Numbered from the stretch's first letter, positions 11,845 to 60,567 are shown. The stretch is DNA of 64,000 nt from Styela clava (GCF_964204865.1 NC_135261.1:10788001-10852000); one strand, 5' to 3'. Numbers and translations: made by a program. The notes: a model not told the origin generated them from the letters alone.

Positions 11845-11884
11845 TCATTTAAAATAGTTCACGGTCCCCGACTACCGGTGAATT

Positions 11885-13720: not shown

Positions 13721-13957
13721 ATTTTTCTGAATATTTCAGTGGGCTTAAATTTGTGCCTGCGGAGCTAACCAGCAATGATGCTTCTAATGTTGTGTGTACT
13801 TATGCATATTAAGATAAAGAAGAAAGTTCATACTAGGAATCCTGATCTAGTTCACGATGTTAAGAATTTTATTGTATGGTCACATTGTGTTTGATTGTTG
13901 GATCAATCATCCTCATTATTTGAAATAATTTTGTGCACAAAATGATCGGGGCCGGTG

Positions 13958-19612: not shown

Positions 19613-22600
19613 ATGAAGATGGATTTTGCATTTTTGTTATGTCTTGCTTCAGTATTTTGTGTAGCCAAGTCTGATGACCCTCCAGGACATCTACAACCTC
19701 TCGGCTCCCATATGCCTCCTATTAAAATCGATGTGATCGATACTCCACCCAATCCACAAGAATTTTTTGATAAATACATTAAAGTCAATAAACCAATCGT
19801 CATCAGAGGAGCGGCAAAAGTTTTTAGCAATTTCAATACTTGGAGAGACGATGATTACTTGAGGTAAGATGTTCATTTTACCGAGAGAAAATGATATTGT
19901 CATATTATTATTGACCTAACTAACAGTTAGGTCAATAATAATAACTAATAATAACTAGAATATCGCTTAGAAACCGAAGACTTATCGATCGAAGGTTAGG
20001 GCATCCCCCAAAACAGTGGTCTTACTCCATAGTGACACCGTGTGTCCCATCACTATTTAAATAATAACTCGCTAATTATAAGACATAATCCATCCAAAAT
20101 CATTCTGATCCGAGCTATGATGAATGCACATGCAAAATTTGGAGCAGATTCAACCTCGCTTTCGTGAGATATCGCGTGCATCTAACACACAGACAAACAG
20201 ACAGACAAATACCTATCAACATACTTACCGATCATAAGATCGATAAGTAATAATAATACCTAATAACTAACAGGGGTTACGTGAAACTAACTACCTTTCC
20301 TTGATCTATGCCTTTGCGCAGGTGGATACTTATGCGTATAACGCAAGGATGCAATAGCAAGAGTGAAAATGACTATTCTATTTAATTCAAGAGTCTTGCT
20401 GCACACGTACACAAATACATTTCTGTAACTTTTCGTCTGATCAAGCATTTTACAACTAGAAATATATTTGTGTAAGTGTGCAGCAAGGCTCTTGAATTAT
20501 TATTGACCTACGTTAATAAATATGGATTTGCATTGACACATGCTTGTATGCATACCTTTATTCCGAACAGCTGCCAGACACAAATTTGTCTATTAATTGA
20601 GTGGGTATTTTAATTCTAGGTTTTGGAAAGTATCCAAACTAAATTTCAAAATTATGCCTTCCAATTTCAAATGTATTTTTTAATTAATTATCATTTTCTA
20701 TATTGCCGCCAGTAATTCACAAAAATCTATCTTTTACAAATGTTTTTGTCATTGATTTTGCTCATTTAAAATGTTGCAATGAAATGTTATTAACCGCACA
20801 AAGATTACTAGTCAACGTAGCACAAAGTTACTTGGACGCTTGAGCTTTAGATTTAATGCATCCGTTGCGGTAGGCACAACGACATTAGTCAACATCATCA
20901 ACATCAACAACACAGGCATCTTTTTTTACAGTGGTATAGGACAGTGGTTCCTAAACTTTTTTTCGCGGCCCCATTTTTATAAAATCGAAAACCACAGATA
21001 TTCGCGACACCACAACAAGAAAAGTTGAATTAAAAAAAAGTGTTTTCTATTCAACTATCTTAATGCGAACAATGCGCATAGATATCGTGTGTACGTGTTT
21101 GAAACCTGGGTGCGGCGTTGTTGTATTATAGTTCCCAACCTTTTTACATTGGCCGATAGGTAACCTCAAATAAAACGACCCCCCAGACCGGTAACAAAAT
21201 ACAGGAATCAATGATACAGATAAAAAAATAACCTTTGTTGCAGTAGAACACTTCAATATTTTGACAAAAAAGAGTTCGAACAAAAAATTTCCGATTGAAA
21301 TCAAATATGAACCATTACATTCACGTGGACGATAAACATTAGTCCGACGAAACGTCAAAAAAAATGGGGAATCCTCAGAAGATTCGATAACACATGACAT
21401 ATAAAAATCGCAAAGAAAAAAACCGAGATTCGCAATATAATAACGGAACATTAGGTCTTTTGGCAATACGTAGACAGACTTCAGACATAAAATGTGGTAG
21501 AAAAAGCGTGAAGAGAAATAGTAAGATTGCTTCTAAATACGGATAAATTTGAAAGTTTTTTTAGTTTTCAGTCTAAACATGGTCAGTCTAGGTTTCATGC
21601 TAAAATATTATGAATTGCTTAATTAGTAATTCGAAAGTAAAACAAAGAACGGAAAAAAAAATAAACATGTACGAATTCGTCTGGGTGCTTGTCATTGATG
21701 CTTAGAATTTTTTTTCGTGTTGCTCTAACTCTAAGGAATTATGTATACATGCAACGCTCTTTATATTATTAATTTAGGGCATTTATTTTTATGTCTAAAT
21801 ACAACAATGCAACATTGTTTGTTCACTAGTGTAGGAAAATGTACACAATTTACTTTATAACGAATAATTTCACATATACAGTTATTAATTCATTTCAAAT
21901 AACTTAATTTGTTTAAACAATTTCTACACCACAGAGAAAAGTACGGTAAATGGATAGCTCCAACAGAAATCGGAAAATTTGAAGCTCAAATATACGGAGA
22001 AATTGTAGAGATGAAATTTGCACGTTTTCTGAGAAGCTATAAAAAGCGAGAACTCTGCATAATTCGAGACATTGTGCCCAAAAACCCAATGAGAGGTAAT
22101 TATATCACTACGTTCGGTAATAAATTTTTGTACTCATATATTGATCAAATTTTTTTCGAGAAAAACACCTGCTGGTCACTTACAAATATATGTAATATAT
22201 TCTAATAAAATACTTACTCTTCTTAGACGAACTATCTTTTATAAAATCTATGTCGTGTGGTGGATTTCAAGAACGGATTTCGAAGGTGATATTTCTATTT
22301 TCCTCCGGATCTGCTCAATCGGCACTACATTGGGATATGCAAGAAAATATGCACTGTATGCTTGATGGTACGAAGAATTGGACAATTATTCACAGGGTAG
22401 ATATTATTGTTCTTTGTATAATAGGTAAATAGGCGAAACAAATAGTATAAATTAGGAGTTTATTGAATTTCGAATTTGCCACCAAATATTTTTTTGGTGT
22501 TTGGAAATTGACTGGGTGAACTGGTTTTACATTGTTTGATCACGCATCGACAGCGACAAGCTACTTATGCTAACAACACGTATTTTCATGCCACTTTTGT

Positions 22601-25600
22601 CCTCCGTAAATGATGGTTCTTACGTGCCGCTTCAGTGTAGTATTCGAGCGTTTTAAATGTGTTAAACTATATTATAATACCGGTAGTAATAAGTCAGTAG
22701 AAACTAGATTGGTCTGTTCTAAAAGAATTTGGCTGTTTTTCCAAAGCAACATTTTATAACGAATGAGTATAATTTCAACCAGGGATGACCAATTCGAATA
22801 AAGTATTCGAATGTATTCGAATATCTCGTCATTCGAATATCGGAATTAACGTTTAAAAAATATCGGATTTTGTGTGACGTCACACATCTGCGACACGGCT
22901 CTCAAAGCGTCTATATTAAATGGTAACTTTCTCGATAGAAACTTACGCATCGCACACACACTCAGCACATGCGCGCTTACGCCACGCTCTCGCCACAAAA
23001 ATCTAGGTCATACACGTTCTCTCGTTTTGCAAAAATCTATTCTTTTCCCGTCTTATTTTATCGTCGCTCAACGCGTGCTTTCTCAGGCGCACGCAACAAC
23101 AAACCAGGTCAAACTATATTATTTCATTCTCTTTCAGCATTTCATTAACTGCGTTCTTTTTACTGTACATAAACACAATTACGCATTGGTAGATTTAAGT
23201 TCTGCGCTACTCATAATAACAATACGGTACACATAAATTAATATATATAAATATACTGTAGGCTTAAATATTAGAATTTGTACAGAGGCCTAATGGATAT
23301 TGGATCGTTGTCGCTTGATTCAGTTGCCTTTAATGCCAATGAATTTTATTACTCTCGCAAAATATACAAAATTATTTAAATACAAAAAGTACTTTTGCCA
23401 ATAAATTATTATGGTAATATCATGGTTCCAAGAACACAAATCATCAAAGAACTCTTTGGCTATCCTTTCATTCGGCCAATTATACAAAGTATACAATTTC
23501 AATTAATTTACTTTGTCACAAGTTGCTAATATTTCTAATGAAAGTTATAAACTATAAAATAATTTGTGTACATATACTGTTGGTTTGTGGCTTTATTCTG
23601 ATATTTCTATTGGAGCTTATTTCCTATTTTACTGGATATTAATTTACTAAAACAAAAATTTGTATGTCTGATTTTAGAAAGTATTCGGAATGCCAGATTC
23701 GAAAATATTATTTTAGAATGTATTCGGAATAGTTCAGTATTCGGAAATGCCATCCCTGATTTCAACAAACTATATATAATATCCATCAATGATTCGATGT
23801 CGCAAACTATATTGTGTTCACATTTGAATAAGTTTATTGAATTTATTATAACAGAAAGATCGACACATACTCCCGGAAACTGATTATTCGCCCGTATATT
23901 CTGGAATTGATCCAAGAAGTGTTGACATGTACAAATATCCCGTAATGCAAGATATGCCTTGGTATCAAGCTTCCGTTGAAGCTGGAGATTGTTTGTTTGT
24001 TCCAAATAAGTGAGTAAAGTTTTTCATTTAGTAATTTTGATATACAAAATATCTATACCGTGCGCATATAACTAAATATATATTTTTAATTAGCGCACCG
24101 CACTACGTGAAATCAGGAGATTCGAGGAATATGGCCTTTTCTATCTGGTTCGATGCCCCGAGATCGCTCAATCTAACAGACTGTCCGGAAAATGAAGCAG
24201 ATTTACCTGACTCTGTGCCAATTGGCCAAAGCGTAATATCAGACTTGGAAAGTGTAAAGTATGCAATAATACGATATTTCAATAAAACATTATCATTATG
24301 ATTATATGGTAGTTGCTTATATGCAATATTATATTGCAATTTTGTGGAACCTCATTAACCTAACTACTGTCTGGCGAAAGTCACGGATCACTTTGAGAAA
24401 CCTCATTAGACGTAACCATACGCTTAATGAAAGCATTGTTTGTTCGACGACAATGAAAGTATAAGCACACTCCTCAGTGAATGATAAAGTAACTGCGTAG
24501 CAAAATTGGTTTATCCCCAATATATAACAGTATCTTTTGAAGCAAACTTTATGATAAATATATTCGAAAATTTTCAGAAAATTTACTACTTATTTCCGCA
24601 TTTACCAAAATGTTCGTTTTTTATTGAAATTGCAATATATTCGGAAGTATTAAAAGGAAATTGTAATGAGAGAAAAAGATAATTCATTGGAAGTTATTTA
24701 TACTTTTAAACTCTTTTGTCTTTACTCTTACCGTATTTGAATAATCGCAATAATTTGTTGATCACTCAGAAGAAGAAAATTACCTTCTAGAAACCTAAAT
24801 TCGGGCTGATTTCATTGCATAAGCACCAAACTTTATATCTTATACCAAAGTTCAGTGAAATAATTGACTGGTCTTGTTTATTGTAATTAAGGGCATTTTT
24901 GTATACAATGATTGATGATCGTACTGATAGACTGTCCGTCATCAAGTTTACCAAAATGGTTCACGCGTTTGGTGCGGACGAGGAGACTTCGTCGGATCTT
25001 CGTGACGTACTCGATAAGGATAAAGACGGTGAGTTAATGTTACCTAAATGTGATATCGTATTTCGAGGCACTGACTAATGGTTATTTATTTAAAATTAAA
25101 TACTGTCTTGTATTCATCATACTGTTTTAATTTTATGAGCATTCGGAACATCGCGGCATTATAAAGAATAACGTCACATCTCACAAATCTATTACCAACC
25201 ATGTATAGGGTTCATGCTGTTGTTCCCTAAACTCCGCGTGCCGAGACTGTGCTTCCTTATTCCTGTCCGCTTTCAAGTCTCTAGTAAAATGTGCAAGTTT
25301 TTTGTTGTATGTTGTATTAAAATAGCGACGTTATAAAAGCAAAAAATAGATATCAAACAGTAAAATAACTTAACTCAAAAATGAGGCAGTAGTAGGTGCG
25401 TGTCGCGAGAGATCCCCGAGTTGAGTGTGGTAACTTTCTTATTCAAAACAGAAGCCAAAACGTGGCAGCGCGACACAGGTCATGTGACCCGAGCCTAGAT
25501 GTCGCTATACATGAAAATTGATCTGAATTGTGCTATTATAAGCATATGAATGGAAAAATTATAGTGTCAATGAATGAAAAGAAACGGCCTTGTTAATTAA

Positions 25601-26104
25601 ATGCTTTCAAAATAGTTCTCGAGCTTGTTTAACTTTGAACTGAACTGCGTGGTTCTTTGTATCTAATATATCATACTATCGTGGTATTTCAATTAGATAT
25701 TACTCCTTGATAAGTTTCCGTATATGCCCTGATAAAGTTTTACTGTATAGAAATGTAGAAAGTCGCGAATTACATTGTTTTTCAAACATCGTCTTTGCTC
25801 CATATATCCTCAAAGTGTCGTGCATATTGAGTATGCAAGATTCCAAATGTGATAAACAAACTGCAGTGGCGTTGCTGATTCCTAATTTTTTTAAGTTTTT
25901 ATTCTCTTTCATACTGAACATTCAGGCAGCATATTTTCATAAAATTACACGTCTTAATATTGTGCAGGTTTTATTACCGAAGAAGAGATCGAAGCTATAA
26001 CAGATGTCACCGATGAGATGTGGTCGGGGCTTTTAGATGAAACAGATGAATACAAAGAGGTAGAAGACTTCAGGAAAAGTAAAAAAGAAAAAGATGAACT
26101 ATAG
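19613..26104 (+). CDS. J1: ER-luminal JmjC (cupin-8) oxygenase with EF-hand and KDEL, 7 exons, 391 aa, intact
   Basis: Exons 19613-19863, 21935-22095, 22227-22396, 23855-24009, 24094-24258, 24892-25028 and 25968-26104; all GT-AG, total 1176 nt, in frame. Hydrophobic N-terminus; PQEFFDKYIKVNKPIVIRGA; LHWDMQENMHCMLDGTKNW; AGDCLFVPNNAPHYV; DKDKDGFITEEE; ends KKEKDEL*. Confidence 0.92.
19954..20250 (+). mobile_element. ~300-bp Helentron/HINE-like repeat, copy 2, in J1 intron 1
   Basis: Subterminal IR acttatcgatc (19980-19990) / gatcgataagt (20238-20248), 3' hairpin and acag microsatellite. Absent from intron 1 of the paralogues. Confidence 0.75.
22780..23758. mobile_element. Non-autonomous hAT element (979 bp) in J1 intron 3
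   Basis: TIR cagggatg / catccctg, 8-bp TSD ATTTCAAC (22772-22779 and 23759-23766), and subterminal attcg(g)aat repeats. Confidence 0.88.
25204..25509. mobile_element. 306-bp insertion in J1 intron 6
   Basis: Absent in J2-J5 (empty site accaacgatgaaaat). Flanked by CATG on both sides, with termini tatag...ctata. Confidence 0.65.
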
Positions 26105-28022: not shown

Positions 28023-31000
28023 ATGAGCATACAATTTATTACATTAGTATGGTTTGTTTCTCTGTCGTGCATTGTAGAATGTGGTGACCCTATGGGACAT
28101 CTTCAATCCCTTGGCTCCCATATGCCTCCGATTAAAATAGATGTGATCCATACTCCACCCAGTCCACAAGAATTTTTTGATAAATACATTAAAGTTAATA
28201 AACCGGTCGTCATCAAAGGAGCTGCAAAAGTTTTAAGCAATTTCAAAACTTGGAGAGATGATGATTACTTGAGGTAAGATGTTTATTTTACTAAGAGAAA
28301 ATGCTATTGTCATATTATTATTATTGACCTACCCTTAATAATTAGGAATTCGCATATTTCTGTGTGCAAGCTTGGATCCCGAACGGCTGTCGTTACAATT
28401 CACGGCTTGGGGAGAAATTCTTGAAATTAGAATCGAAAATTATGCTTTTCAATTTCAAATGCCTTTTTTACTTTTCATTTGCAATATTGTCGTCATAAAA
28501 TCACAAAAAAAAAGTTTTTCTCATGTTATATCATACATTTTGCTCATTTAAAATGTTCAAATCATTTGAAATAATGTGTTGCAAAATTAATAGTCAACTT
28601 TGCACGAAGCTGCTTCGGAGTTTAATCATTAGATTTTAAGCAAATGTTGCAGAGCGCGCTGATTGGTAGTGGTTTATATTTTAAAACCAAGTGGTCGCAA
28701 ATTTGGCCGACATCATCGACTACATACGGAGGCATACGGAGCTTAAAAGATTATCACAGTGGTGCAGGAAAATTTAAATAAAATAATCATATGAGCATTA
28801 TATAACATAAGGAATTATTATCTCATTTTAATTATAACTTAATTTGTTTTAAAAATTTCTACACCACAGTGAAAAGTACGGTAAATGGATAGCTCCAACA
28901 GACCTCGGAAAATTTGAGGCTCAAATATACGGAAAAATTTTTGAAATGAAATTTGCACGTTTTCTAAGAAGCTATAAAAAGCGAGAACTCTGTATAATTC
29001 GGGACATTCTGCCCGAGAACCCAATGAGAGGTAATTATTTACTACTTTCTGTTATAAATTTTGTACTCGTAAACTAAGTAAACTACCATCCGGTCACCTA
29101 CAAATATTTGTCATATATTCCACTAAAATATAATACGTACTCTTTTTAGACGAACTATCTTTTATAAAATCTATGTCGTGCGGTGGATACCAAGAACGGA
29201 TTTCGAAGGTGATATTCCTATTTTCATCTGGTTCTGCTCAATCAGCACTACATTGGGATATGCAAGAAAATATGCATTGTTTGCTTGATGGTACGAAGAA
29301 TTGGACAATTATTCACAGGGTAAATAATATTGTTCCTTGTATAATAAGTGAGATAGGTATTATAAATTATAGGCTTATTGAATTACGTATTTGCCACCAA
29401 AACTAATTTATTGTTTGACAAATTGACTGGATAATCATATTCGTAGAGGCAGCAGTCTAGTAACAGCTATTGATACTAACAGACGCATTTTCATGCAACT
29501 CCTGTCCTCCATGAATGCGATGGCTTCAGTGTAGTTTTCAGCGATTTAAATTGTTTATTGCCTTTTGTATTGTATTTCAAACGACGAATTCAGTAAGACA
29601 TTTGCAGCTGGCTTTTTCCCCGACTACTTCACGACTAGTTTAATCTTCTCCGCGGGCCACACTATTTTTCCAGGTGGGTCGCATTTGGTCGCAAATTCAA
29701 AATTTTAAATCATTCCTAACCTCAGATGTGTATCAACTAATTTGTTATTTCAAACGTGGTGGGGTGTCTCCCTCAAATCTCACATTTTTGCATTAGTGTC
29801 GGGGGATTCGTACGAAAGATACGCAACTTAGACAAGTGCCTGAGCCTGTGTCATGCATATATACTTATACACCAATTCGTTGGCTATTGTAGAGTTCGAA
29901 TTCGAATAAGTGTATGGAATTTACCTTAACAGAAAGATCGACACATACTCCCAAAGTCGGATCATTCGCCAGTGTATTCTGGAATTGATCCAAGAAGTGT
30001 TGACATGTACAAATATCCCGTAATGCAAGATATGCCTTGGTATCAAGCTCTTATTGAAGCAGGAGATTGTTTGTTTGTTCCGAATAAGTAAGAAAAGTTT
30101 GTCATATATTAATTTTAATATACAAAATATCTATACTGTGCGCATATAACTAAATATATTATTTTAATAAGCGCACCGCACTACGTGAAATCAGGAGATT
30201 CGAGGAATATGGCCTTTTCTATCTGGTTCGATGCCCCGAGATCGCTCAATCTAACAGACTGTCCGGAAAATGAAGCAGATTTACCTGACTCAGTGCCAAT
30301 TGGCCAAAGCGTAATATCAGACTTGGAAAGTGTAAAGTATGCCATAATACGATATTTCAATAAAACATTATTATTCTGATTATAAAGTAGTTGCTTATAT
30401 GCAATATTATAATGCAATTTTGTGGAACCTCATTACTACTGTCTGGCGAAAGTCACGGATCACTCTGAGAAGGCTTTTTTGGACGGAACCATACGCTTAA
30501 TGAAAGCATTGTTTGTTCGACGGCAATGAAAGTAAGCACGCTCCTCAGTGAATATGATAAAGTATCCGCGTAGCAAAAGTGGTTGATCCCCGATATATAA
30601 CAGCATCTTTTGAAGCAAACTTCATGTTACATATTAGGAAATGTTCAGAAAATTTACTACTTTTTTCCGCATTTACCAAAATGTTCGTTTTGTATTGAAA
30701 TTGCAAATTATTAGGAAATATTAAAAGGGAATTGTAATAGAAGAAAAATATAATTCATTGGAATTTATTTACACTTTTAAACTCTTTTGTCTTTACGTTT
30801 ACCGTATTTGAATAATCGCAATAATTTTTGATCAGTCAGAAAAAGAAATTAACTTCTAGAAACCCGAATTCGGGCTGATTTCATGGCATAGGCACCAAAC
30901 ATTATATCTTATAACAAAGTTCAGTGAAATAATTGACTGGTATTGTTTATTGTAATCAAGGGCATTTATGTATACAATGATTGATGATCGCACTGATAGA

Positions 31001-31868
31001 CTGTCTGTCATCAAATTTATCAAAATGGTTCACGCGTTTGGTGTGGACGAGGAGACTTCGTCGGATCTTCGTGACGTACTCGATAAGGATAAAGACGGTG
31101 AGTTAGTGTTAAACTACAAGTGATATTGTATTTCAGAGCACTGACTAATAGTTATTTATTTAAAAATAAATACTGTCTTGTATTCATCATACTGTTTTAT
31201 TTTAATGAGCATTCGCAACATCGCGGTATTATAAAAAACAACGTCACATCTCACAAATCTAATACCAACGATGAAAATGGATCTGGATTGTGCTATCATA
31301 AGCATATAAATGGAAAAAGTATAGTGTCAATGAATGATAAAGAAACGACCCTGTTAATTAAATTCCTTTCAAAATAGTTTTCGAGCTTGTTTAACTTTGA
31401 ACTGAACAGCGTGGTTCTTTGTATCTAATATATCATACTATCGTGTTATTTCAATTAGATACTATTCCTTGATAAGTTTTTTTATATGCCCTGATAAAGT
31501 TTTTCTGTATAGAAATGTAGAACGTCGCGAATTACATTGCTTTTCAAACATCGTCTGTGCTCCATATATCTTCAAAGTGTCGTGCATATAGAGTATGCGA
31601 GATTCCAAATGTGATAAATAAACTGAAGTGGCGTTACTGATTCCTAAATATTTTTCAAGTTTTTATTTCCTTCCATACTGAACATTCAGGCAGCATATTT
31701 TCACAAAATTACACGTCTTTATATCGTGCAGGTTTTATTACCGAAGAAGAGATCGAAGCTATAACAGATGTCACCGATGAGATGTGGTCGGGATTTTTAA
31801 ATGAGGCAGATGAATACAAAGAGGTAGAAGACTTCAGGAAAAGTAAAAAAGAAAAAGAGGAACTATAG
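28023..31868 (+). CDS. J2: JmjC-EF-hand-KEEL paralogue, intact
   Basis: Exons 28023-28273, 28870-29030, 29150-29319, 29933-30087, 30172-30336, 30961-31097 and 31732-31868, the same lengths as in J1. HWD...H intact; ends KKEKEEL*. Confidence 0.9.
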
Positions 31869-33410: not shown

Positions 33411-36038
33411 ATGAGCATAGAATTTGTTACATTAGTATGGTTTGTTTCTCTGTCGTGCATTGTAGAATGTGGTGACCCTATGGGACATCTTCAATCCCTT
33501 GGCTCCCATATGCCTCCGATTAAAATAGATGTGATCCATACTCCACCCAGTCCACAAGAATTTTTTGATAAATACATTAAAGTTAATAAACCGGTCGTCA
33601 TCAAAGGAGCTGCAAAAGTTTTGAGCAATTTCAAACTTGGAGAGATGATGATTACTTGAGGTAAGATGTTTATTTTACTAAGAGAAAATGCTATTGTCAT
33701 ATTATTATTATTGACCTACCCTTAATAATTATGAATTCGCATATTTCTGTGTGCAAGCTTGGATCCCGAACGGCTGCCTCTACGAATATGATTATCCAGT
33801 CAATTTGTCTAGTAACAGCTATTGATACTAACAGACGCCTTTTTCATGCAACTCCTGTCCTCCATGAATGCGATGGCTTCAGTGTAGTTTTCAGCGATTT
33901 AAATTGTTTATTGCCATTTGTATTGCATTTCAAACGACGAATTCAGTAAGAAATTTGCAGCTGGCGTTTTTCCCGACTACTTCACGACTAGTTTGATCTT
34001 CTCCGCGGGCCACACTATTTTTCCAGGTGGGTCGCATTTGGTCGCAAATTCAAAATTTTAAATCATTCCTAACCTCAGATGTGTATCAACTAATTTGTTA
34101 TTTCAAACGTGGCGGAGTGTCTCCCTCAAATCTCACATTTTTGCATTAGTGTCGGGGGATTCGTACGAAAGATACGCAACTTAGACAAGTGCCTGAGCCA
34201 GTGTCAGGCATATATACTTATACACCAATTCGTTGGCTATTGTAGAGTTCGAATTCGAATAAGTGTATGGAATTTACCTTAACAGAAAGATCGACACATA
34301 CTCCCAAAGTCGGATCATTCGCCAGTGTATTCTGGAATTGATCCAAGATGTGTTGACATGTACTAATATTCCGTAATGCAAGATATGCCTTGGTATCAAG
34401 CTCTCATTGAAGCAGGAAATTGTTTGTTTGTTCCGAATAAGTAAGAAAAGTTTGTCATATATTAATTTTAATATACAAAATATCTATACTGTGCGCATAT
34501 AACTAAATATATCTTTTTAATAAGCGCACCGCACTACGGGGAATTGGGAGATTCGAGGAATATGGCCTTTTCTATCTGGTTCGATGCCCCGAGATCGCTC
34601 AATCTAACAGACTGTCCGGAAAATGAAGCAGATTTACCTGACTCAGTGCCCATTGGCCAAAGCGTAATATCAGACTTGGAAAGTGTAAAGTATGCCATAA
34701 TACGATATTTCAATAAAACATTATTATTCTGATCATAAAGTAGTTGCTTATATGCAATATTATAATGCAATTTTGTGGAACCTCATTAACACTGTCTGGC
34801 GAAAGTCACGGATTACTCTGAGAAGGCCTTTTTGGACGGAACCATACGCTTAATGAAAGCATTGTTTGTTCGACGGCAATGAAAGTAAGCACGCTCCTCA
34901 GTGAATATGTTAAAGTATCCGCGTAGCAAAAGATACCCCGATATATAACAGCATCTTTACCGTACCGTTTACCGTATTTGAATAATCGCAATAATTTTTG
35001 ATCAGTCAGAAGAAGAAATTTACCTTCTAGAAACCCAAATTCGGGCTGATTTCATGGCATTAGCACCCAATATTATATCTTATAAAAAGTTCAGTAAAAT
35101 AATTGACTGGTCTTGTTTATTGTAATTAAGGGCATTTATGTATACAATGATTGATGATCGCACTGATAGACTGTCCGTCATCAAATTTACCAATATGGTT
35201 CACGCGTTTGGTGTGGACGAAGAGACTTCGTCGGATCTTCGTGACGTACTCGATAAGGATAAAAACGGTGAGTTAGTGTTGAACTACATGTTATATTGTA
35301 TTTCAGAGCACTGACTAATATTTATTTATTTAAAAATAAATACTGTCTTGTATTCATCATACTGCTTTATTTTAATGAGCATTCGCAACATCGCGGCATT
35401 ATAAAAAACAACGTCACATCTCACAAATCTAATACCAACGATGAAAATGGATCTGGATTGTGCTATCATAAGCATATAAATGGAAAAAGTATAGTGTCAA
35501 TGAATGATAAAGAAACGACCCTGTTAATTAAATTCCTTTCAAAATAGTTCTCGAGCTTGTTTAACTTTGAACTGAACAGCGTGGTTCTTTGTATCTAATA
35601 TATCATACTATCGTGTTATTTCAATTAGATACTACTCCTTGATAAGTTTTGTTATATGCCCCGATAAAGTTTTTCTGTATAGAAATGTAGAACGTCATGA
35701 ATTACATTGCTTTACAAACATCGTCTGTGCTTCATATATCCTCAAAGTGTCGTGCATATTGAGTCTGCGAGATTCCAAATGTGATAAATAAACTGAAGTG
35801 GCATTACTGATTCCTAAATATTTTTCAAGTTTTTATTTCCTTCCATACTCAACATTCAGGCAGCATATTTTCATAAAATTACACGTCTTTATATCGTGCA
35901 GGTTTTATTACCGAAGAAGAGATCGAAGCTATAACAGATGTCACCGATGAGATGTGGTTGGGATTTTTAAATGAGGCAGATGAATACAAAGAGGTAGATG
36001 ACTTCAGGAAAAGTAAAAAAGAAAAAGAGGAACTATAG
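33411..36038 (+). pseudogene. J3: pseudogene
   Basis: 1-bp deletion in exon 1 (ttcaaacttgg at ~33633), exons 2-3 deleted (junction 33773-33809), and a premature TAA in exon 4 (34364-34366). Confidence 0.92.
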
Positions 36039-40500: not shown

Positions 40501-41413
40501 TTAAGGGCATTTATGTATACAATGATTGATGATCGCACTGATAGACTGTCCGTCATCAAATTTACCAATATGGTTCACGCGTTTGGTGTGGACGAAGAGA
40601 CTTCGTCGGATCTTCGTGACGTACTCGATAAGGATAAAGACGGTGAGTTAGTGTTGAACTACATGTTATATTGTATTTCAGAGCACTGACTAATAGTTAT
40701 TTATTTAAAAATAAATACTGTCTTGTATTCATCATACTGTTTTATTTTAATGAGCATTCGCAACATCGCGGCATTATAAAAAACAACGTCACATCTCACA
40801 AATCTAATACCAACGATGAAAATGGATCTGGATTGTGCTATCATAAGCATATAAATGAAAAAAGTATAGTGTCAATGAATGATAAAGAAACGACCCTGTT
40901 AATTAAATTCCTTTCAAAATAGTTCTCGAGCTTGTTTAACTTCGAACTGAACAGCGTGGTTCTTTGTATCTAATATATCATACTATCGTGTTATTTCAAT
41001 TAGATACTACTCCTTAATAAGTGCTTTTATATGCCCTGATAAAGTTTTTGTGTATAGAAATGTAGAACGTCGCGAATTACATTGCTTTACAAACATCGTC
41101 TGTGCTTCATATATCCTCAAAGTGTCGTGCATATTGAGTATGCGAGATTCCAAATGTGATAAATAAACTGAAGTGGCGTTACTGATTCCTAATTATTTTT
41201 CAAGTTTTTATTTCCTTCCATACTGAACATTCAGGCAGCATATTTTCATAAAATTACACGTCTTTATATCGTGCAGGTTTTATTAGCGAAGAAGAGATCG
41301 AAGCTATAACAGATGTCACCGATGAGATGTGGTTGGGATTTTTAGATGAAACAGATGAATACAAAGAGGTAGAAGACTTCAGGAAAAGTAAAAAAGAAAA
41401 AGAGGAACTATAG
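37580..41413 (+). pseudogene. J4: full 7-exon copy with an exon-1 frameshift
   Basis: Same AAAA->AAA deletion as J3 (37802-37804), giving FKLGEMMIT*. The remaining exons are present and look open, ending KEKEEL*. Confidence 0.8.
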
Positions 41414-46300: not shown

Positions 46301-47276
46301 ATGTATACAATGATTGATGATCGCACTGATAGACTGTCCGTCATTAAATTTACCAAAATGGTTCACGCGTTTGGTGTGGACGAAGAGGCTTCGTCGGATC
46401 TTCGTGACGTACTCGATAAGGATAAAGACGGTGAGTTAGTGTTGAACTACATGTTATATTGTAATTCAGAGCACTGACTAATAGTTATTTATTTAAAAAT
46501 AAATACTGTCTTGTATTCATCATACTGTTTTATTTTAATGAGCATTCGCAACATCGCGGCATTATAAAAAACAACGTCATATCTCACAAATCTAATACCA
46601 ACGATGAAAATGGATCTGGATTGTGCTATCATAAGCATATAAATGGAAAAAGTATAGTGTCAATGAATGATAAAGAAACGACCCTGTTAATTAAATTCCT
46701 TTCAAAATAGTTCTCGAGCTTGTTTAACTTTGAACTGAACAGCGTGGTTCTTTTTATCTAATATATCATACTATCGTGTTATTTCAATTAGATACTACTC
46801 CTTGATAAGTTTTTTTATATGCCCTGATAAAGTTTTTCTGTATAGAAATGTAGAACGTCGCGAATTACATTGCTTTACAAACATCGTCTGTGCTTCATGT
46901 ATCCTCAAAGTGTCGTGCATATTGAGTATGCGAGATTCCAAATGTGATAAATAAACTGAAGTGGCGTTACTGATTCCTAAATATTTTTCAAGTTTTTATT
47001 TCCTTCCATACTCAACATTCAGGCAGCATATTTTCATAAAATTACACGTCTTTATATCGTGCAGGTTTTATTACCGAAGAAGAGATCGAAGCTATAACAG
47101 ATGTCACCGATGAGATGTGGTCGGGATTTTTAAATGAGGCAGATGAATACAAAGAGGTAGAAGACTTCAGGAAAAGTAAAAAAAATAAGAGGAACTATAG
47201 AATTAAAACATTCAAAAACCTTGACCTTAGATTTTGTGAAAATTACCATGAATGTAAATTTTTTGCAATGATTTAA
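43359..47276 (+). CDS. J5: paralogue with an intact catalytic domain but a frameshifted C-terminus (no KEEL)
   Basis: Exons 43359-43609, 44209-44369, 44482-44651, 45266-45420, 45505-45669, 46294-46430 and 47065-47276. The last exon is 1 nt short before the usual TAG (ends 47200) and reads on as KKNKRNYRIKTFKNLDLRFCENYHECKFFAMI*. Confidence 0.78.
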
Positions 47277-49156: not shown

Positions 49157-52100
49157 ATGAAAATAGAATTTGTTACATTAGTATGGTTTGTTTCTCTGTC
49201 GTGCATTGTAGAATGTGGTGACCCTATGGGACATCTTCAACCCCTCGGCTCCCATATGCCTCCGATTAAAATAGATGTGATCGATTCTCCACCCAGTCCA
49301 CAAGAATTTTTTGATAAATACATTAAAGTTAATAAACCGGTCGTCATCAAAGGAGCTGCAAAAGTTTTTAGCAATTATAAAACTTGGAGAGATGATGATT
49401 ACTTGAGGTAAGATGTTTATTTTACTAGAAAAAAATGCTGTTGTCATATTATTATTATTGACCTACCCTTAATATTTATGAATTCGCATATTTTTGTGTG
49501 CACGCTTGGATCCCGAACGGCTGTGGTTTTAGTTCACGGCTTTGGAAGAAATTCTCCAAATTAGAATCGAAAATTATGCTTTTCAATTTCAAATGTCTTT
49601 TTTACTTTTCATTTGCAATATCGTCGTCATAAAATCACAAAAAAAAAAGTTTTTCTCATGTTCTATCATAGATTTGGCTCATTTAAAATGTTGCAATCAT
49701 TTGAAATATTTTGTTGCAACATTAATAGTAAAATTTGCACAAAGCTGCTTTGAAGTTTTATCATTAGATTTGAAGCAACCGTTGCAGAGCGCGCTGATTG
49801 GTAGTAATTGATAGTTTAAAACCAAATGATAGCAAATTTGGGCAACATCATGGACTGCATACGGAGGCATACGGGGCTCAAAAGATTATCACAGTGGTGC
49901 AGGAAAATGTAAAAGTTTAATCATATGAGCATTATATAACACGAAGAGTTATTATTTCATTTCAATTATAACTTAATTTGTTTTAACAATTTCTACACCC
50001 CAGTGAAAAGTACGGTAAATGGATAGCTCCAACAGAACTCGGAAAGTTTGAGGCTCAAATATACGGAAAAATTTTTGAAATGAAATTTGCACGTTTTATA
50101 AGAAGCTATAAAAAGCGAGAACTCTGTATAATTCGGGACATTCTGCCAGAGAACCCAATGAGAGGTAATTATTTACTACTTTCTGTTATAAATTTTGTAC
50201 TCATAAGCTAAGTAAACTACTATCCGGTCACCTACAAATATTTGTCATATATTCCACTAAAACGTACTCTTCTTAGACGAACTATCTTTTATAAAATCTA
50301 TGTCGTGTGGTGGATACCAAGAACGGATTTTGAAAGTGATATTCCTATTTTCTTCTGGTTCTGCTCAATCAGCACTACATTGGGATTTGCAAGAAAATAT
50401 GCATTGTTTGCTTGATGGTACGAAGAATTGGACAATTATTCACCGGGTAAATAATATTGTTCCTTGTATAATAAGTGAGACAAATATCAACTAATTTGTT
50501 ATTTCAAACGTGGCGGGCTGTCTCCCTCAAATCTCACATTTTTGCATTAGTGTCGGGGGATTCGTACGAAAGATACGCAACTTAGACAAGTGCCTGAGCC
50601 AGTGTCAGGCATATATACTTATACACCAATTCGTTGGCTATTGTAGAGTTCGAATTCGAATAAGTGTATGGAATTTACCTTAACAGAAAGATCGACACAT
50701 ACTCCCGAAGTCGGATCATTCGTCAGTATATTCTGGAATTGATCCAAGAAGTGTTGACATGTACAAATATCCCGTAATGCAAGATATGCCTTGGTATCAA
50801 GCTCTCATTGAAGCAGGAGATTGTTTGTTTGTTCCGAATAGGTAAGAAAAGCTTGTCATATATTAATTTTGATATACAAAATATCTATACTTTGTGCATA
50901 TAACTAAATATATTTTTTCAATTAGCGCGCCGCACTACGTGAAATCAGGAGATTCGAGGAATATGGCCTTTTCTATCTGGTTCGATGCCCCGAGATCGCT
51001 CAATCTAACAGACTGTCCGGAAAATGAAGCAGATTTACCTGAAATGGCGCCAATTGGCCATAGCGTAATATCAACCCTGGAAAGTGTAAAGTATGTCATA
51101 CTCATAGTACTATATTATCATGAAACTTTATTATTATTATGAAGTAGTTGATTGCTTGAATTTCACAATACAATTTTGTGGAAACTTATTAATCAAATTA
51201 CTAACTGGCGAATTACTACTGACACTACTGGATCACTTTAAGAAGCAATTATATACGAAACCACGCGCTTGATATTTAATTACAGCACTGTTTGTTCGTC
51301 GACAAATTTATCGAATTGAAAACACGTTTTCAGTGAATATGGTAAAGTATTTGAGTAGCAAAAGTGGTCATTCTCAGATGGGCCCGATATAGACCAAAAT
51401 CTTTTTAACATATGCTACTTATTCTCGAATTTTTCACACTGTTTGTTTGGTATTAAAAATGCAATTTCATAGATAATATTGAAAATACCCGACCTCTTTT
51501 TTCTAAAAATTTGCCAATTCGGCTTTCATGACGTTATTATCTTTTTACCCAGAGCAAAATATTTACTCTTCAAGACGATACGAATAAGCAAGTTAAAATA
51601 ATATTTGAACACATATATATATGATCGAGAAAAAGGATAGAAATTCATCAAAAGTTATTTACATCTTCAAGTCAATTTCTTTTATTACACCTATTCCATT
51701 TTTACTGTATTTCAAAAATTGCTAATTCTTTGGGTTTTTATCTGTTTTAATTTGTAGCCAGAAAAATGAATTTATCTTTTAAAAACCTAAAATGCGGCTG
51801 ATTAAATAACATTAACACCTACCAATATATACTATAACAAATCCAGTGAAATAATGACCAGTTTTGTTTATTGTAATTCAGGGCCTTTTTGTATACAATG
51901 ATAGATGATCGAAGTGATAGACTGTCCGTCTTCAAGTTCAACAAAATGGTTCAGGCATTTGGCGCAGACGAGATGACTTCGTCGGAACTTCGTGACGTAC
52001 TCGACTCGGATAAAGACGGTGAGTTAGGCTTGAACTACATGTGGTATTGTATTACAGAGCACTGACTAATAGTTATTCATTCAAAAATACTGTATTGCAT

Positions 52101-52588
52101 CCATCATATTTTTCATTTTTCATAAAGATAGGCCTGGATTGTGTTATTGTAAGCATTTCAATCAAAAAACTATGTTGTCAATGAATGATAAACAAATGAC
52201 CCTGTTATTTAAATTGCTCTTTGAATAGTCCTCGAGCTTGTTTGAACTTGCGTGCTTACTTGTACGTAGTATATCCTTAAAGTATTGTGCATATTGAGTA
52301 AGCGATATTCTGAATGCGAATAAAACCAAACTGGCATTAATGATTCCTTATGAAGACAAAAGTGCAATGGTTTCATAAGTTTTGTTTCTTCTTGACTGAA
52401 ACATTTAGGCAGCATATGTTCATAAACTTACAGGTATTTATATTCATGCAGGTTTCATTACCGCAGAAGAGATCGAAGCTTTAACGGATGTCACAGATGA
52501 GATGTGGCCGGTATTTTTATTTGACACAGATGAATACAAAGAGGTAGAAAACTTCAGTAAAAGTAAACAAGAAAAAGAGGAACTATAA
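49157..52588 (+). CDS. J6: JmjC-EF-hand-KEEL paralogue, intact
   Basis: Exons 49157-49407, 50004-50164, 50277-50446, 50687-50841, 50926-51090, 51882-52018 and 52452-52588. LHWDLQEN, APHYV, DSDKDGFITAEE; ends KQEKEEL*. Confidence 0.9.
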
Positions 52589-54195: not shown

Positions 54196-54423
54196 GAGTA
54201 GAATATGCGCAATCAAATACACTGAAGTTTTAGACTTCGGCAGCGAAGGTTCAGGTTTTAAAAAAGAATTCGTTGTTATTTCAGACTCATGCTGTCCAAT
54301 GTTTGTACCAACTTCGCTTCGCGGGTGAATTACTTCTGGACTAAATTAAAATTTTCCCATCATATAGTACTTCTTTCCAAATGATTGAAATTGTCATGAA
54401 ATGCTATGCACCAAATTTATAAA

Positions 54424-54906
54424 ACTAGAATTCGGTTGGAAACCGAAGACTTATCGATCGGAGGTTAGGGGATCCCCCAAAACAGTGATCTTACTCCATA
54501 GTGACACAGTGTGTCCCATCACTAATTAATTAATAACTCGCTAATTATACGACATAATCCATCCACAATCGATAGGCTCCTGTTCCGAACTATGATGAAT
54601 GCACATGCAAAATTTGGAGCAGATTCAACCTCGCTTTCATGAGATATTGCGTGTATCTAACAGACAAACAAACAACAAACAAACAAACAAACGAGAATAT
54701 CGGTCGGAGACCGAAGACTTATCGATCTTAGATCGGTAATTAGTTAATAACTCGCTAATTATACGACATAATTAACCCAAACATACAGACAGACAAACAG
54801 ACAAATACCTATCAACATACTTACCGATCTTAAGATCAATAAGTAACAAACAAACAAACAAACAAACAAACAATCAGACAAATACCTATTAACATACTTA
54901 CCGATC
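54424..54906 (+). mobile_element. Helentron/HINE-like repeat, copy 3, with a nested partial copy and duplicated 3' end
   Basis: Matches 19954-20250. A second 5' start lies at ~54693 and the tail gacaaatacctat..acatacttaccgatc occurs twice. Confidence 0.75.
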
Positions 54907-55294
54907 TTTTATTTATATAATACTCAAGTATGCATGGAAAACTGTTGTAATCATAGTAAACATGGGCAAGAATTAATTTTCCCATACAGTTTTTTAAATT
55001 TTATCCAATGCGACGTCCCATGAAACGTAACAATATTGATAGTTTAATAATATGATCATGTATCATCAGGTTTATGAGGAAAGTGTATAATGAATCCATA
55101 AAACGTGAGCGACGTCGGATGTTATGTAAAATCTTGTGTAACGTAGGATAGCAGTTTGAACAATAGATTGAAGAGTTTCTAGAACATCCTGCCATTGTTG
55201 AAGATACGCGTGAAAAGGATTTCGTGCGGTGTGCAAAATGGATAAAATTTAACTACATATTGGTAAGACATTGCGACATTGGTACACCTAATTT

Positions 55295-55765
55295 AATTTA
55301 AAGTTTTTTTTACGAAACTACAACATGTATCAAATATGTATGAGGCTAGATATTGTAACAATCAACTCAATGAGAGGTAAGCTCAAAAACATACGTTCAC
55401 TCACGCAATGAACTCTTATGCCTGATGTATCTTTGGCGGCAGTAAACTATCTACCGGTATATACTTTATTATTGCAAGTTTCCCATGCTTATTTTATGGT
55501 GAGGTTACGTGCACATTCATAATTTATAATCTACCTGCGACCGCACAAAGTTCAATTGTGTTCAATTCAAGATATGACCTATAGATTGATGTAGTGAAGT
55601 ATCAAAATTGATTATTCATGATTCCCAGTTATATATGTTTTGTTTCCACCAGATGAACTGTCTCTTATGTATTTCAAGATCTGGTCATCGGCACTGCATT
55701 AGGATCATGAGGAAAATATGCATTGTATGCTTGGCGATGCACAGAATTGGACAATCTTTCACTGG
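55295..55765 (+). pseudogene. Decayed remnant (exons 2-3) of a J8-type JmjC gene
   Basis: tttaaagttttttttacgaaactacaac...aatgagag|gtaag (ends 55376) matches J8 exon 2. ccaccag|atgaactgtctcttatg...gca ctg cat tag gat cat gag gaa aat atg cat tgt matches exon 3, with a stop and an internal deletion. Confidence 0.8.
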
Positions 55766-56987
55766 CGACGTGTGTCTACTATCTGTTGCTATAATATATA
55801 TATATATATATAGAACAATGGTTAAAAAAAATTCAATAAATAAGGTATGTCGGTCGACCTGGTATAAAATGCGAGACATGATTTACGAAATGAAATAATA
55901 CACATTATTACATGAGCCCACCATAACGCCGCCTTACCAATCTTCCATGGCGTAGGTGAGAAATTTAAAATAAAACAATCGGTAATTAATTCGAAAGCAA
56001 TTTTAGTTTGCAATTTCAAATTAAATACCCTGTGATTTGAATTCCCATGGACAAGCCAGGCAAATCCGTCATATAAAATAAAGACCCGAAGTTATGTGTG
56101 AGAAGCAGTATTGCTTCCGTATGTGGCAGCGTTACATCCGTTCCTATATAATTGGCGTAACTTTATACCTTGCGTATGTTTGTACAATGTGAGTAATTAT
56201 TATTTATTGCCAGAATTATAATCACGCCCGAATTGGAGTGCTTGATGTCCAATTATACAGTTGTGCCATTATTTTTAATGCTGGCCTTTTATGCTGCTAT
56301 ATTTCTATAATCCTCTCTCCCAAAATTCGTGCAATCACCAAAATATTCTTGCATAATCAGACACATGCAGTCAAACAGAGAAAAAAAATGATAACGCAAA
56401 GCGTATAGACACGATTATGTCCACTCATTATTTTTTATTGTGATAAATAATAAAGATGTTCAAAAATATACGGGAAATATAATTTATGCTTCCTTCCATG
56501 CCAAAGTTGGCTGAGGGATAATTGACATATTACTCAATGTGAACTTCTCTGCACCATATGGTTAAAGATTAGGCGTCATCATATCAATTAGTGAACAATG
56601 TGGTCAACGCATCCAAAGGAGCACGTGTCCAACGGACGGAGCTTTGTCGCAACGAAGTTGCATCAAATCGTATATACCAAAAAGGGTTTGATATCGGAAA
56701 GTAAAAAAGTCTTCAACGACGCAGAAAGCTTTTTACATTACTTACTTCAGAATTAAACGAATAGATCAGTCTCAGGGTTATATTAATTAGTATCGACAAA
56801 ATGTTATATCATGGGTTCAGAATATCAAAAAGCAGACGACGTATCTGAAACCTTCAGGTTTTCGGAGGAAATTTAGATTCCACTGACGCTCGTAAATTGA
56901 AGCCGTAAAGGTAAAATAAAAATTCATTTCTACTAAGATATAATCCAACTCTGTTTAAAATCACAGATTATAAAATTAACAATTGCA

Positions 56988-59900
56988 ATGAAGATCGAAT
57001 TTTCATTTTTGCCATTTCTTGCTTCAGTATTTTATGTAGCCAAGTGTGATGACCCTCCAGGACATCTACAACCTCTCGGCTCCCATATGCCTCCGATTAA
57101 AATAGATGTGATCGATACTCCACCCAATCCACAAGAATTTCTTCATAAATATATTAAAGGTAATAAACCGGTCGTCATCAAAGGTGCTGCAAAAGTTTTT
57201 AGCAATTTCAATACTTGGAAAGATGATGATTACTTGAGGTAAGTTGTTTATTTTACTAAGAGAAAATGCTAGCGTCATAATATTATTGACCTACCTTAAT
57301 AATTATGGATTTGCAATAGCACATACTAAAACATAGATAATACACATAATACTGAATTCTGTAATCTGTTTTTTGTTTGCCAAGCTTGCTTACCGAAAAG
57401 CAACCAGAAACAGATTTTGGGGAGTGATTGTGGATACTGTTTAATTCACGATACAATTGGCTAACATAAGGCATAACAGGGCTTATTACTTGATTTTATT
57501 ATTACAGTGGTGTAGAAAAAAACGCAAATATCCAGTCATATGAATATTATATGACAAATAGAATTAGTTCATTTCAACTATCTAACTTAATTTGTTTTAA
57601 CAATTTCCACACCACAGTGCAAATTACGGTAAATGGAACGTTCCTACAGAAGTCGGAAAAATTGAGATTCAATTTCCAGATATTATACCAATAGAGTTTG
57701 CACATTTCCTCAAGAGCTATAAAAAGCGGGATCTCTGCATAATTCGGGACATTGTTCCCGAGAACCCAATGAGAGGTAAAGATTTTATCAAGGTCTACAA
57801 CAAATTTTGTACTGATATATAGGGAAAATGTTTCGTGAGAACAAGCAGCTGGGCACATACGAACATGTGCGATATATTCAATTAAAATACTCTTACTCTT
57901 CTCAGACGAACTATCTTTTATAAAATCTATGTCGTGTGGTGGATTCCAAGAACGGATTTCGAAGGTTATACTCCTATTTTCATCCGGTTCTGCTCAATCG
58001 GCAATACATTGGGATATGCATGAAAATATGCATTGTTTGCTTGATGGTACGAAGAATTGGACAATCATTCACAGGGTAAATAATATTGTTCCTTTCATAA
58101 TAGGCGAAACAAATATTATAAATTTTAAGTTTATTGAATTTGCCACTAAAAACATTTGTACATTGTTTAATCACGGGTGTATTCGTGAAAGCAAAGTAGT
58201 GACAAGATATTTATGCCAACAGCACGCATTTGTCTAGATTTTGATAGATTCTTTTTGTAAGGAACACATTATGAAATCAATTTTCAAAAAATTGAAATCA
58301 ATTTTCAAAAAATTGATTTTGTTTATATCTATTATTAAATTGAAAACACATTTACAGGTCATTACTTGCTTTCAACCTAGTACGAATCACTTTAAATACT
58401 TTACAATTACGATATTTTTGGTGACGTTTTCGATATTTATTCGCTGTTTGACTACTACTTAAAATCTTTTCAATAGATTAATTATTGATATAAAGTCTCA
58501 GAATTGTATTCTGTATAACGTCGAAATAAAAATCAAATATAGATTTCCTAGCGTCTCGACGTACCCTGCGGATTGTGATCGTTGGTGCGAGTCGCTTAGA
58601 GATTTAGTCAACGATACCTTTGACACTCAATCATTCATTACTCGAACGGTTTCAGTGTCTATACAGTCTAATTTCCTGGCGATTTGAAAGTGTCAAACTA
58701 TCTTATATACTAATACTAAGTTAGTAGAAACTAGATTGTTGTGTCTATGTGTATATATAGAATATTGCTTTTTTCGAAAGCATTATTTCAAAACGAATTA
58801 GTATAATATTTACCAATTATATATCATATACAGCATACACCAATGATTATTTGGCGCAAATTATTGTGTTCACATTCGAATAAGTGTGTCAAATTTATTA
58901 CAACAGAAAGATCGACATATACTCCCGAAGGCGGATTATTCGCCCGTATATTCTGCAGTTGATCCAAAGAGTGTTGACATGTACAAATATCCCGTAATGC
59001 AAGATATGCCTTGTTATCAAGCTTTCTTACAAGCCGGAGATTGTTTGTTCGTTCCAAATAAGTAAGAAATTTTTTTCATATATTAATTTTGACGAAATAT
59101 CTATACTGTGCGCATATAACTAAATATATATATCTTTTCAATTAGCGCACCGCACTATGTGAAATCAGGAGATTCGAGGAATATGGCTTTTTCTATCTGG
59201 TTCGATGCCCCGAGGTCTCTCAATCTAACAGACTGTCCAGAAAATGAAGCAGACTTGCCTGACTCGGCGCCAATTGGCCATAGCGTGATATCAGATTTGG
59301 AAAGTGTGAAGTATGTCGTAATACTAGGTTTCCATAAAACATTATTATTATTAAGATGCACTGTAGTAATTTACAATATTAATTTCACAATACAATTTTG
59401 TGTAACCTCATTAACTGTCTGGCAAAAATCATGGTTTATCTCAGTTGGGATCAATATAAGACAAAATCTTTTTAAAATAAACTTAAAGTTTTGGAAGATC
59501 TTGAAAAAATTTCTAATGCAATATCATGGAAGATAATAAAAATCGCCGACCCTTTTTTTCTCAAATTCGATAAATTTGGCTGTGAAGTAAAATCATTCTT
59601 CGCCCCGGATTTGAAACAAAAAAAAAAATTTTCAATTTATAGACGATAATCAACAACGTTATAAAGTATAATAATGAACAACTTTATTTTCTCTTTACTT
59701 GAAGCAAATCTGACAAAATACTTACTCCCCTAGACGCAAAGAATAAACAAGTAGAAATAATATCTGAACACATATGATCAAAAAAGGGGATGGAAATAGA
59801 AATTTATCAACAGTTATTTGATTTTCTCAGTCAATTATATTTATTTACAATCGCTAATTTTTGATTAGTTACTTTGTAACCAGAAAAAGGTACTTAACTT

Positions 59901-60567
59901 TTAGAAACTCAAATGAGGTTGATTTCATGACATAAGCATAAGCACATTATATCCCATGATAAAAACGAAAAGTGAAATATTTGATCATTTTGGTTTGTTG
60001 TAATTCAGGGCATTTATATATACAATGATAGATGATAGAAGTGATAAACTGTCCGTCATCACGTTTGACGAAATGGTTCGCTCATTTGGTGCAGACGAAG
60101 AGACTCCGTCGGAACTTCGTGACGCACTCGACACGGATAGAGACGGTGAGTTGAGCTTTAAATACAAGTGATATTTTATTTCGGAGCATTGACCAATATT
60201 TATTTATTTAAAAATAATATTGTATTGTAATTATCACAGTGTTTCATGTTATATTTTTATGAAACATAAAAATGAACATCGCAGAAATAGCAAACTCCGA
60301 ATGCGTTTAATTAACAAAACTGGCGTTAATGATTCCTTATTAGGGCAACAGCGTCAGAGTCATTTTTTCTTCGTCTTGAAACTTTTAGACAGCCTATGTT
60401 CATGAATTTACATGTCTTTATATTCGGCAGGTTTTATTACCGCAGAAGAGATCGAAGCTTTAACGGATGTCACAGATGAGATGTGGTCGGGATTTTTATT
60501 TGACACAGATGAATACGAAGAGGTAGAAGACTTGGGCAAAAGTAAACAAGAAAAAGAGGAATTATAG
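56988..60567 (+). CDS. J7: JmjC-EF-hand-KEEL paralogue, intact, 390 aa
   Basis: Exons 56988-57238, 57618-57775, 57906-58075, 58907-59061, 59146-59310, 60009-60145 and 60431-60567. IHWDMHEN, APHYV, DTDRDGFITAEE; ends KQEKEEL*. Confidence 0.9.

Follow-up and report, generated by a model that had tools for sequence, protein, structure and literature searches.

We analysed a 64,000-nt stretch of the 377 Mb Styela clava genome (G000:C16:10788001-10852000, hereafter the window) in which positions 19613 to 60567 hold seven tandem copies, J1 to J7, of a gene for a predicted JMJD5-like oxygenase with a predicted signal peptide. Judged by their sequences, these genes belong to the 'secreted JMD5-like family' that Iyer, Abhiman, de Souza and Aravind described in 2010 by its conserved cysteines, its GHxxxhG motif and its lineage-specific expansions (PMC2938197, passages on this family). 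The explanation that we tentatively prefer, at somewhat less than an even chance for the whole, is that the array is a Styela-specific set of this family and that its intact copies encode predicted Fe(II)/2-oxoglutarate (2OG) hydroxylases retained in the endoplasmic reticulum (ER), probably acting on arginine or lysine of secretory proteins or pro-peptides. Taken by its parts, the prediction of ER-lumenal Fe(II)/2OG hydroxylases is very probable, an arginine or lysine target is marginally favoured, and action on the styelins, cationic defence peptides of this species, is unlikely.

The array genes are real. Self-comparison of the window revealed tandem units of ~4-6 kb that start at 19.6 kb, and the span above fits exactly, running from the J1 ATG (19613) to the J7 stop (60567). 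Seven-exon models with GT-AG introns give open proteins of 391 residues for J1, J2 and J6 and 390 for J7; these four copies are intact. Two others, J3 and J4, are broken, and in J5 the ER tail alone is lost. J8 starts at 62291 and occupies G000:C16:10850291-10853423 in full; beyond the window come J9, J10 and a decayed copy. In the assembled transcript contigs of four of the 13 listed runs (X1, X2, X5 and X6), which report presence only, X6 shows splicing of all six introns of J1, and J2 introns 1, 3, 4 and 5 are joined in X1, X2 or X5. The J1 protein is 100% identical to annotated S. clava protein P0001, which probably annotates the same assembly, so that this match is not independent; J7 is near-identical to database protein P0002. 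The array features are as follows:

19613..26104 (+): J1, 391 residues, KDEL end; intact model, six introns spliced in X6
19613-19863, 21935-22095, 22227-22396, 23855-24009, 24094-24258, 24892-25028, 25968-26104 (+): J1 exons
28023..31868 (+): J2, 391 residues, KEEL end; intact model, joints in X1, X2, X5
33411..36038 (+): J3, pseudogene without exons 2-3, with a 1-nt exon-1 deletion and an exon-4 stop
37580..41413 (+): J4, pseudogene in the present assembly, with the same exon-1 frameshift (deletion) as J3
43359..47275, end approximate (+): J5, open catalytic domain and EF-hand, last-exon frameshift
49157..52588 (+): J6, 391 residues, KEEL end; intact model
54269..55976 (+): J8-like decayed relic, 70-83% DNA match to 61352-63963, with an exon-3 fragment at 55678-55765
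56988..60567 (+): J7, 390 residues, KEEL end, divergent gating loop; intact model
62291..64000 (+): J8, exons 1-3 in the window, running past its end; open frame, R-x-N...Y at the ligand positions

The J5 frameshift (within 47065-47275) lies in an A run and replaces KEEL with a 26-residue tail; if it is real, and an assembly error in such a run is possible, J5 may be a catalytically intact copy that escapes ER retrieval.

The predicted proteins share a layout suited to the secretory pathway: a hydrophobic N-terminus, GHLQ(P/S)LG, a Cupin_8 JmjC domain (Pfam, E=6e-27), an EF-hand-like loop for which the Pfam models stay below cut-off (E=0.004 for that of J1), and a KDEL or KEEL end. For J1 the elements that bear on location are:

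19613..19672 (+): predicted signal peptide, ~residues 1-20, hydrophobic 10-mer mean 2.9
19685..19705 (+): GHLQPLG, the family GHxxxhG motif as defined in Table 1 of PMC2938197
25013..25987 (+): EF-hand-like loop D342-E353, interrupted by intron 6; sub-cut-off in Pfam, modelled as helix-loop-helix
26090..26101 (+): C-terminal KDEL, predicted ER retrieval signal

Signal peptides were judged by hydrophobicity alone. The motif reads GHLQPLG or GHLQSLG in J1-J9 and GHLKPFG in J10, and conservation in a 122-row alignment is 90% or higher at C148, C181, C240 and C276, conserved cysteines being a trait of the family. A hydrophobic N-terminus is present in 129 of 162 family proteins, many of the remainder being fragments; among the best 150 family representatives, 110 carry the GH motif, and a KDEL-like end is present in 85 by our own pattern (in 43 by strict K/H/R-DEL). 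These features lend support to the secretory-pathway residence that an earlier note on this DNA had predicted, and narrow it to predicted ER retention. The same note had taken the acidic C-terminal region as a sign of cationic substrates, and this argument does not hold. The EF-hand/ER tail is common to the whole family, with a median net charge of -15 over the last 120 residues of 86 members (-21 to -26 in the array, -8 in the sister clade on contig C1), and the net charge of the catalytic domain is close to zero (-4 to +6), so that the tail says little about substrate charge. One relative, a 705-codon intronless member on C8 (L028:852-2966, minus strand), has several EF-hand-like motifs and a KTEL end, and P0141 is close to it.

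Structural and phylogenetic comparisons place the catalytic domain next to JMJD5. The AlphaFold model, built on the 122-row alignment, has a mean predicted local distance difference test score (pLDDT) of 90, and a wide structural search returned JMJD5 as the best match (Z 24.4, root-mean-square deviation 2.6 Å, 228 residues aligned), followed by JMJD7 (Z 22.3), TYW5 (21.9) and FIH (21.1). Foldseek scored JMJD7 and JMJD5 about equally, its top E-values going to JMJD7, and the family profile matched JMJD5 at 5e-40 and JMJD7 at 1e-32. In an IQ-TREE analysis of 44 chosen domains, with family rows chosen by similarity to J1, the family forms one clade (100/99) whose sister is Styela JMJD5 (94/81, unstarred). 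Within it the C16 genes group together (100/100) on a long stem branch (0.47), join three C1 genes in a Styela clade (100/99) that adjoins a Phallusia protein (96/85), and are nested with these among named tunicate rows and two unnamed ones (97/90); a 166-row FastTree agrees. What we take to be the true Styela JMJD5 (L026) and JMJD7 (L024) lie on C2 and C17, and presumptive TYW5, JMJD4 and JMJD8-like genes also lie on other contigs, all named from characteristic motifs and JMJD5 also by likeness to a PDB chain. Orthology of the window genes to JMJD5 or JMJD7 was therefore rejected in favour of a sister family, and the database names 'JMJD5-like' and 'JMJD7-like' are no sign of it.

Other oxygenases of this genome were considered alongside. 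PLOD, P4H, P3H and JMJD8 work in, or are directed to, the secretory pathway, the first three being other 2OG families that act at collagen-type sites, and the substrates of JMJD7 are cytosolic. Styela PLOD is a single locus on C5, and a JMJD8-like open reading frame (ORF) with a signal is present on C2 (L040). A second expanded 2OG family (PF03171; L041-L049 and L051; C8, C9, C10, C16, C19) was set aside as cytosolic-looking small-molecule oxygenases: the 11 stretches examined are without a signal peptide where the start is seen, some are intronless, they lie in clusters, and one further ORF is prolyl-4-hydroxylase-like.

The family is far wider than this species. A similarity search across 1.84 billion representatives gave 480 matches with E up to 1e-10, and of 30 representatives looked up 16 are named by organism: sponge, Trichoplax, Nematostella, four molluscs, Lingula, barnacle, crinoid, hemichordate, amphioxus and four tunicates, with no vertebrate. 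Orthologues from other stolidobranch ascidians are absent from the named matches, and a cluster search with the Nematostella member found only uncharacterised mollusc, cnidarian and chordate clusters. P0020, P0104 and P0014, members from the barnacle and from marine-protist-type collections (MMETSP, eukprot) in which contamination is possible, contrast with the arthropod loss and animal-only range given in the table of the 2010 paper (PMC2938197).

The active site carries the argument for catalysis and for a basic target. JMJD5 holds its target arginine with E238 and Y243 and 2OG with Y272, S318 and K336, W310 lining both sites, and the E238A, Y243A and W310A variants are each inactive (PMC5862942, sections cited). 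Three alignments agree on the mapping of J1 residues to JMJD5, the pocket geometry being taken from alignment and not from model coordinates. The relevant J1 features are:

21966..22013 (+): E95, equivalent to JMJD5 E238 (arginine salt bridge), and variable loop 96-110, equivalent to the JMJD5 beta3-beta4 gating loop
22056..22067 (+): C125 (Tyr in the family, JMJD5 Y272) and R128 (JMJD5 Q275), both C16-clade-specific replacements
22328..22336 (+): iron ligands H172-W-D174, with the third ligand, H249, at 24101-24103

J1 retains the H172, D174, H249 triad together with K187, N178 and S169 for 2OG binding, and the triad is intact in J1, J2, J5, J6, J7, J9, J10, the C1 copies and 141 of 162 aligned proteins. 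Glutamate or aspartate occupies the E238 position in 137 of 148 other family rows (counted after removal of 16 duplicates or fragments and 3 short domains) and in all 9 Styela C16 and C1 rows shown, J2 having Asp; its equivalent is missing from Styela JMJD7, where the ORF is gapped, and from TYW5, JMJD4, JMJD8 and L027. This conserved acid is the main sequence evidence pointing to a basic target. The Tyr243 position, placed to within one column and dependent on gaps, holds F99 in J1, Ile in J7 and J10, and Tyr in J8, J9 and the C1 copies. The gating loop after E95 is the most variable part among the copies: across seven paralogues the mean pairwise difference is 0.61 in residues 96-110 and 0.22 elsewhere in the domain, the loop value being reached by 7 of 236 windows. 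In J8 the iron ligands are replaced by R-x-N...Y, the frame is open with a ratio of nonsynonymous to synonymous substitution (dN/dS) of 0.14-0.20, and P0004 has identical changes; it is likely a pseudo-enzyme. Comparable losses in unrelated members (P0074 R-D-N, P0094 R-D-Y, P0128 H-E-Y, P0156 H-E-Q) imply, together with J8, that pseudo-enzymes recur in the family.

The copies turn over and the proteins are constrained. Copies 2-6 share 92-98% DNA identity across kilobases and decayed copies lie at ~54.3-56.0 kb and between J8 and J9, so the birth-and-death suggested for the array stands, as turnover and not as an arms race. The companion suggestion of fast evolution is weak: catalytic-domain dN/dS is 0.08-0.34 in 20 of 21 computable pairs, which implies purifying selection and led us to reject positive selection on this domain. 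A separate observation on copy number is database protein P0006, J2-like at the front and J6-like at the rear, which may reflect unequal-crossing-over variation or a chimeric gene model.

Three styelin genes were located on C10 of the host genome and two matches to clavanin on C1. The eight named database matches to exon 1 (68-100% identity) are all from Styela clava, in agreement with the host that had been guessed from the sequence. Dihydroxyarginine and dihydroxylysine in styelin D were reportedly described in 2000, and hydroxyarginine in mussel glue in 1995. Styelin D contains one dihydroxyarginine, four dihydroxylysines, two 5-hydroxylysines, four 3,4-dihydroxyphenylalanine (DOPA) residues and bromotryptophan, and its precursor has a signal peptide and a C-terminal pro-piece (PMC8659048, sections cited). 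Hydroxyarginine is also reported from sponge and mussel peptides (PMC11603075, sections cited), and sponge and mollusc members of the family were found, that is, in phyla with reported hydroxyarginine peptides. Spliced J1 or J2 accompanies one spliced styelin gene in all four runs examined, contigs from unspecified tissue; X5 has styelin and J2 spliced and no J1 joint among those listed, from which, as contigs report presence only, nothing is inferred.

A linked substrate did not emerge. ORF, Pfam and signal-pattern scans of the window and ~58 kb downstream uphold the earlier statement that the window has no substrate gene: no peptide-precursor gene was found by a scan that would miss exons shorter than ~48 codons, Pfam searches of 104 ORFs upstream and 149 downstream picked up nothing beyond a gag-like domain of a retroelement, a G-protein-coupled receptor (GPCR) fragment and weak sub-cut-off matches, and the signal-peptide pattern produced one intronic chance match. 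A predicted complex in which residues 21-391 of J1 were paired with residues 23-81 of pro-styelin P0188 in the presence of iron scored 0.01 against a mark of 0.34, without alignments or folded controls, and is evidence neither way. A non-exhaustive literature search, which did not surface the 2010 family paper and left most subscription journals outside, found no enzyme assigned to styelin hydroxylation or to the hydroxyarginine of mussel glue.

In the mechanism that we propose, the signal peptide would direct each intact protein into the ER and KDEL or KEEL would retain it there, H172, D174 and H249 would bind iron and K187, S169 and N178 2OG, and E95 would anchor the charged end of arginine or lysine as E238 does in JMJD5, bringing a side-chain C-H to the iron. 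Differences in the variable loop after E95 could make the copies prefer different sequences. With Leu/Ile for Trp and Cys/Ser/Ala for Tyr the pocket would be roomier, and it may admit lysine or allow hydroxylation at a different carbon or for a second time. Among named substrates the best candidates would be, as a guess, cationic defence pro-peptides of the styelin kind, on whose lysines the first hydroxyl, at C5, could come from the single PLOD. Among named hypotheses the styelin link ranks first, because chemistry, compartment and species coincide and we know of no other ER candidate for arginine. In its fullest form, which we consider improbable, the C16 array and its C1 sisters would be the missing styelin-type tailoring set, with gating-loop copies installing the dihydroxyarginine and dihydroxylysine hydroxyls and J8 as a pseudo-enzyme partner.

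Several observations weigh against hydroxylation of basic residues by the array, and against styelins in particular. The distribution from sponge to amphioxus means that the family did not arise for styelins, and purifying selection is at odds with an arms race. C1, C13 and C8 carry at least eight further members that look full-length, partial matches occur on C3, C4 and C9, and these Styela paralogues are equal candidates for styelin modification. Across the C16 clade the Tyr272 equivalent (present in 143 of 148 other rows) has become Cys, Ser or Ala (C125 in J1), the Trp310 equivalent (135 of 148) has become Leu or Ile (L161 in J1), and Arg128 has been gained at the substrate-contact position of JMJD5 Q275; an arginine at that position does not favour a polycationic substrate, and W310A inactivates JMJD5. 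JMJD5 itself hydroxylates C3 and did not accept lysine for arginine. The one stated styelin D position is C5 of lysine (PMC8659048, sections cited), which fits PLOD better than a C3 hydroxylase. The array is linked neither to the styelin genes (C10) nor to the clavanin genes (C1, at 1.5 Mb from the C1 paralogues), variation of surface loops is common to any protein family, and the literature search above found no bench study or activity data for any family member. The age of the family, the competing paralogues, pocket changes that do not clearly favour a polycation, and the C5 position are the reasons that we rate the styelin link as unlikely. Of the hypothesis in the earlier note, lysine or arginine hydroxylases for defence or matrix peptides, what survives rests on the host, the predicted ER location, the intact triad, the kinship with JMJD5 as closest solved relative and the retained Glu238 equivalent, without the arguments from acidic tail and fast evolution.

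The leading alternative, possible although doubtful in our judgement, is that the copies hydroxylate, in the ER, folded proteins that are secreted or displayed at the cell surface (tunic, matrix, lectins), at residues that need not be basic, styelins being modified by C1 or C13 paralogues and by PLOD. It would suit an old and widely distributed family, the gain of Arg128 with loss of the arginine-stacking Trp, a single PLOD locus to account for reported 5-hydroxylysine, and a C1 clade that retains Tyr and has an aromatic residue, Phe, at the Trp310 position; it also lies close to the 2010 prediction for this family, hydroxylation of cell-surface proteins outside the cytosol (PMC2938197, passages on this family). 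Against it, every intact copy has the acidic anchor at E95. Moreover, PLOD follows the collagen rule X-Lys-Gly, whereas most styelin lysines precede A, S, F, H, Y or T, and to our knowledge no ER enzyme hydroxylates arginine.

More distant readings concern what the proteins do at all. A changed chemistry, in which the ER-lumenal enzyme uses a different 2-oxoacid or works on a small molecule, a glycan or a lipid, is suggested by the joint replacement of two top-conserved pocket residues on the long C16 stem and by a His at the JMJD5 L329 position. It is nevertheless improbable: K187, S169, N178, V251 and W264 are unchanged, the closest relatives of known structure have as substrates proteins or a tRNA side chain resembling an amino acid, and FIH is active with a Leu where JMJD5 has Trp310. 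We also regard as improbable that the copies are non-catalytic ER binders or chaperones (or peptidases, as in the database names of JMJD5/7), with near-identical J2-J6 as neutral products of unequal crossing over; J8, open and constrained without its three metal ligands, and damage in three of the five copies J2-J6 speak for this, and the triad conserved in the other copies and across most of the family speaks against it.

Other features accompany the array. Two 802-bp direct repeats (94% identical) at window 11043-14733 flank a 529-codon ORF with DUF1759 and internal 90/258-bp repeats, and the element looks like a BEL/Pao-type long terminal repeat (LTR) retroelement without pol. A ~300-bp dispersed repeat at 19948-20253 in J1 intron 1 has further copies at 4351-4667 and 54419-54687, and its summed contig depth is very high in all four runs examined. 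Between J9 and J10 lie two Ser/Thr-rich ORFs of 619 and 637 codons, without Pfam match and partly mutual repeats (L010, G000:C16:10867597-10871308, minus strand; L011, 10873520-10875839, plus strand), alongside a fragmented rhodopsin-type GPCR.

A remodelled and expanded clade of predicted ER-retained JMJD5-like proteins in a species that makes styelins merges the search for the styelin enzymes and the question of family function into one inexpensive peptide mass-spectrometry assay, for which J8 offers a natural negative control, and makes a question of about 25 years' standing directly testable. If arginine or lysine hydroxylation by the array is confirmed, it would be the first secretory-pathway Arg/Lys JmjC hydroxylase known to us and a tool for salt-tolerant peptide antibiotics and modified adhesives; if the tailoring role is also true, the wider family would also account for the hydroxyarginine of mussel adhesive proteins and of sponge peptides.

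Compared with known systems, the array proteins share with JMJD5/KDM8 (PDB 6F4N-6F4T) the fold, the H-x-D...H signature and equivalents of E238, S318, N327, K336, V402, S412 and W414. At 21% identity they differ from it in missing its N-terminal helical domain, in their additional predicted signal peptide, EF-hand and KDEL, and in the changes Y272 to Cys, W310 to Leu and Q275 to Arg. With the (3S)-lysyl hydroxylase JMJD7 (PDB 5NFN, 7YXG), after which P0001 is named in the database, they share fold and metal triad, with a weaker profile match than to JMJD5; JMJD8 falls outside the family clade and is without the E238 equivalent. The nearest description is that of the secreted JMD5-like family, with the same GHxxxhG motif, conserved cysteines, JMJD5-like features and invertebrate expansion, and with no substrate named in the 2010 passages devoted to it (PMC2938197). 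That account presents the family as secreted, whereas KDEL or KEEL and the EF-hand-like tail of the Styela array point to ER residence, and the C16 clade departs from it in its remodelled pocket and likely pseudo-enzyme. Thus the family was already known by prediction, and what is new is the remodelled Styela clade, its likely pseudo-enzyme and its occurrence in a producer of styelins.

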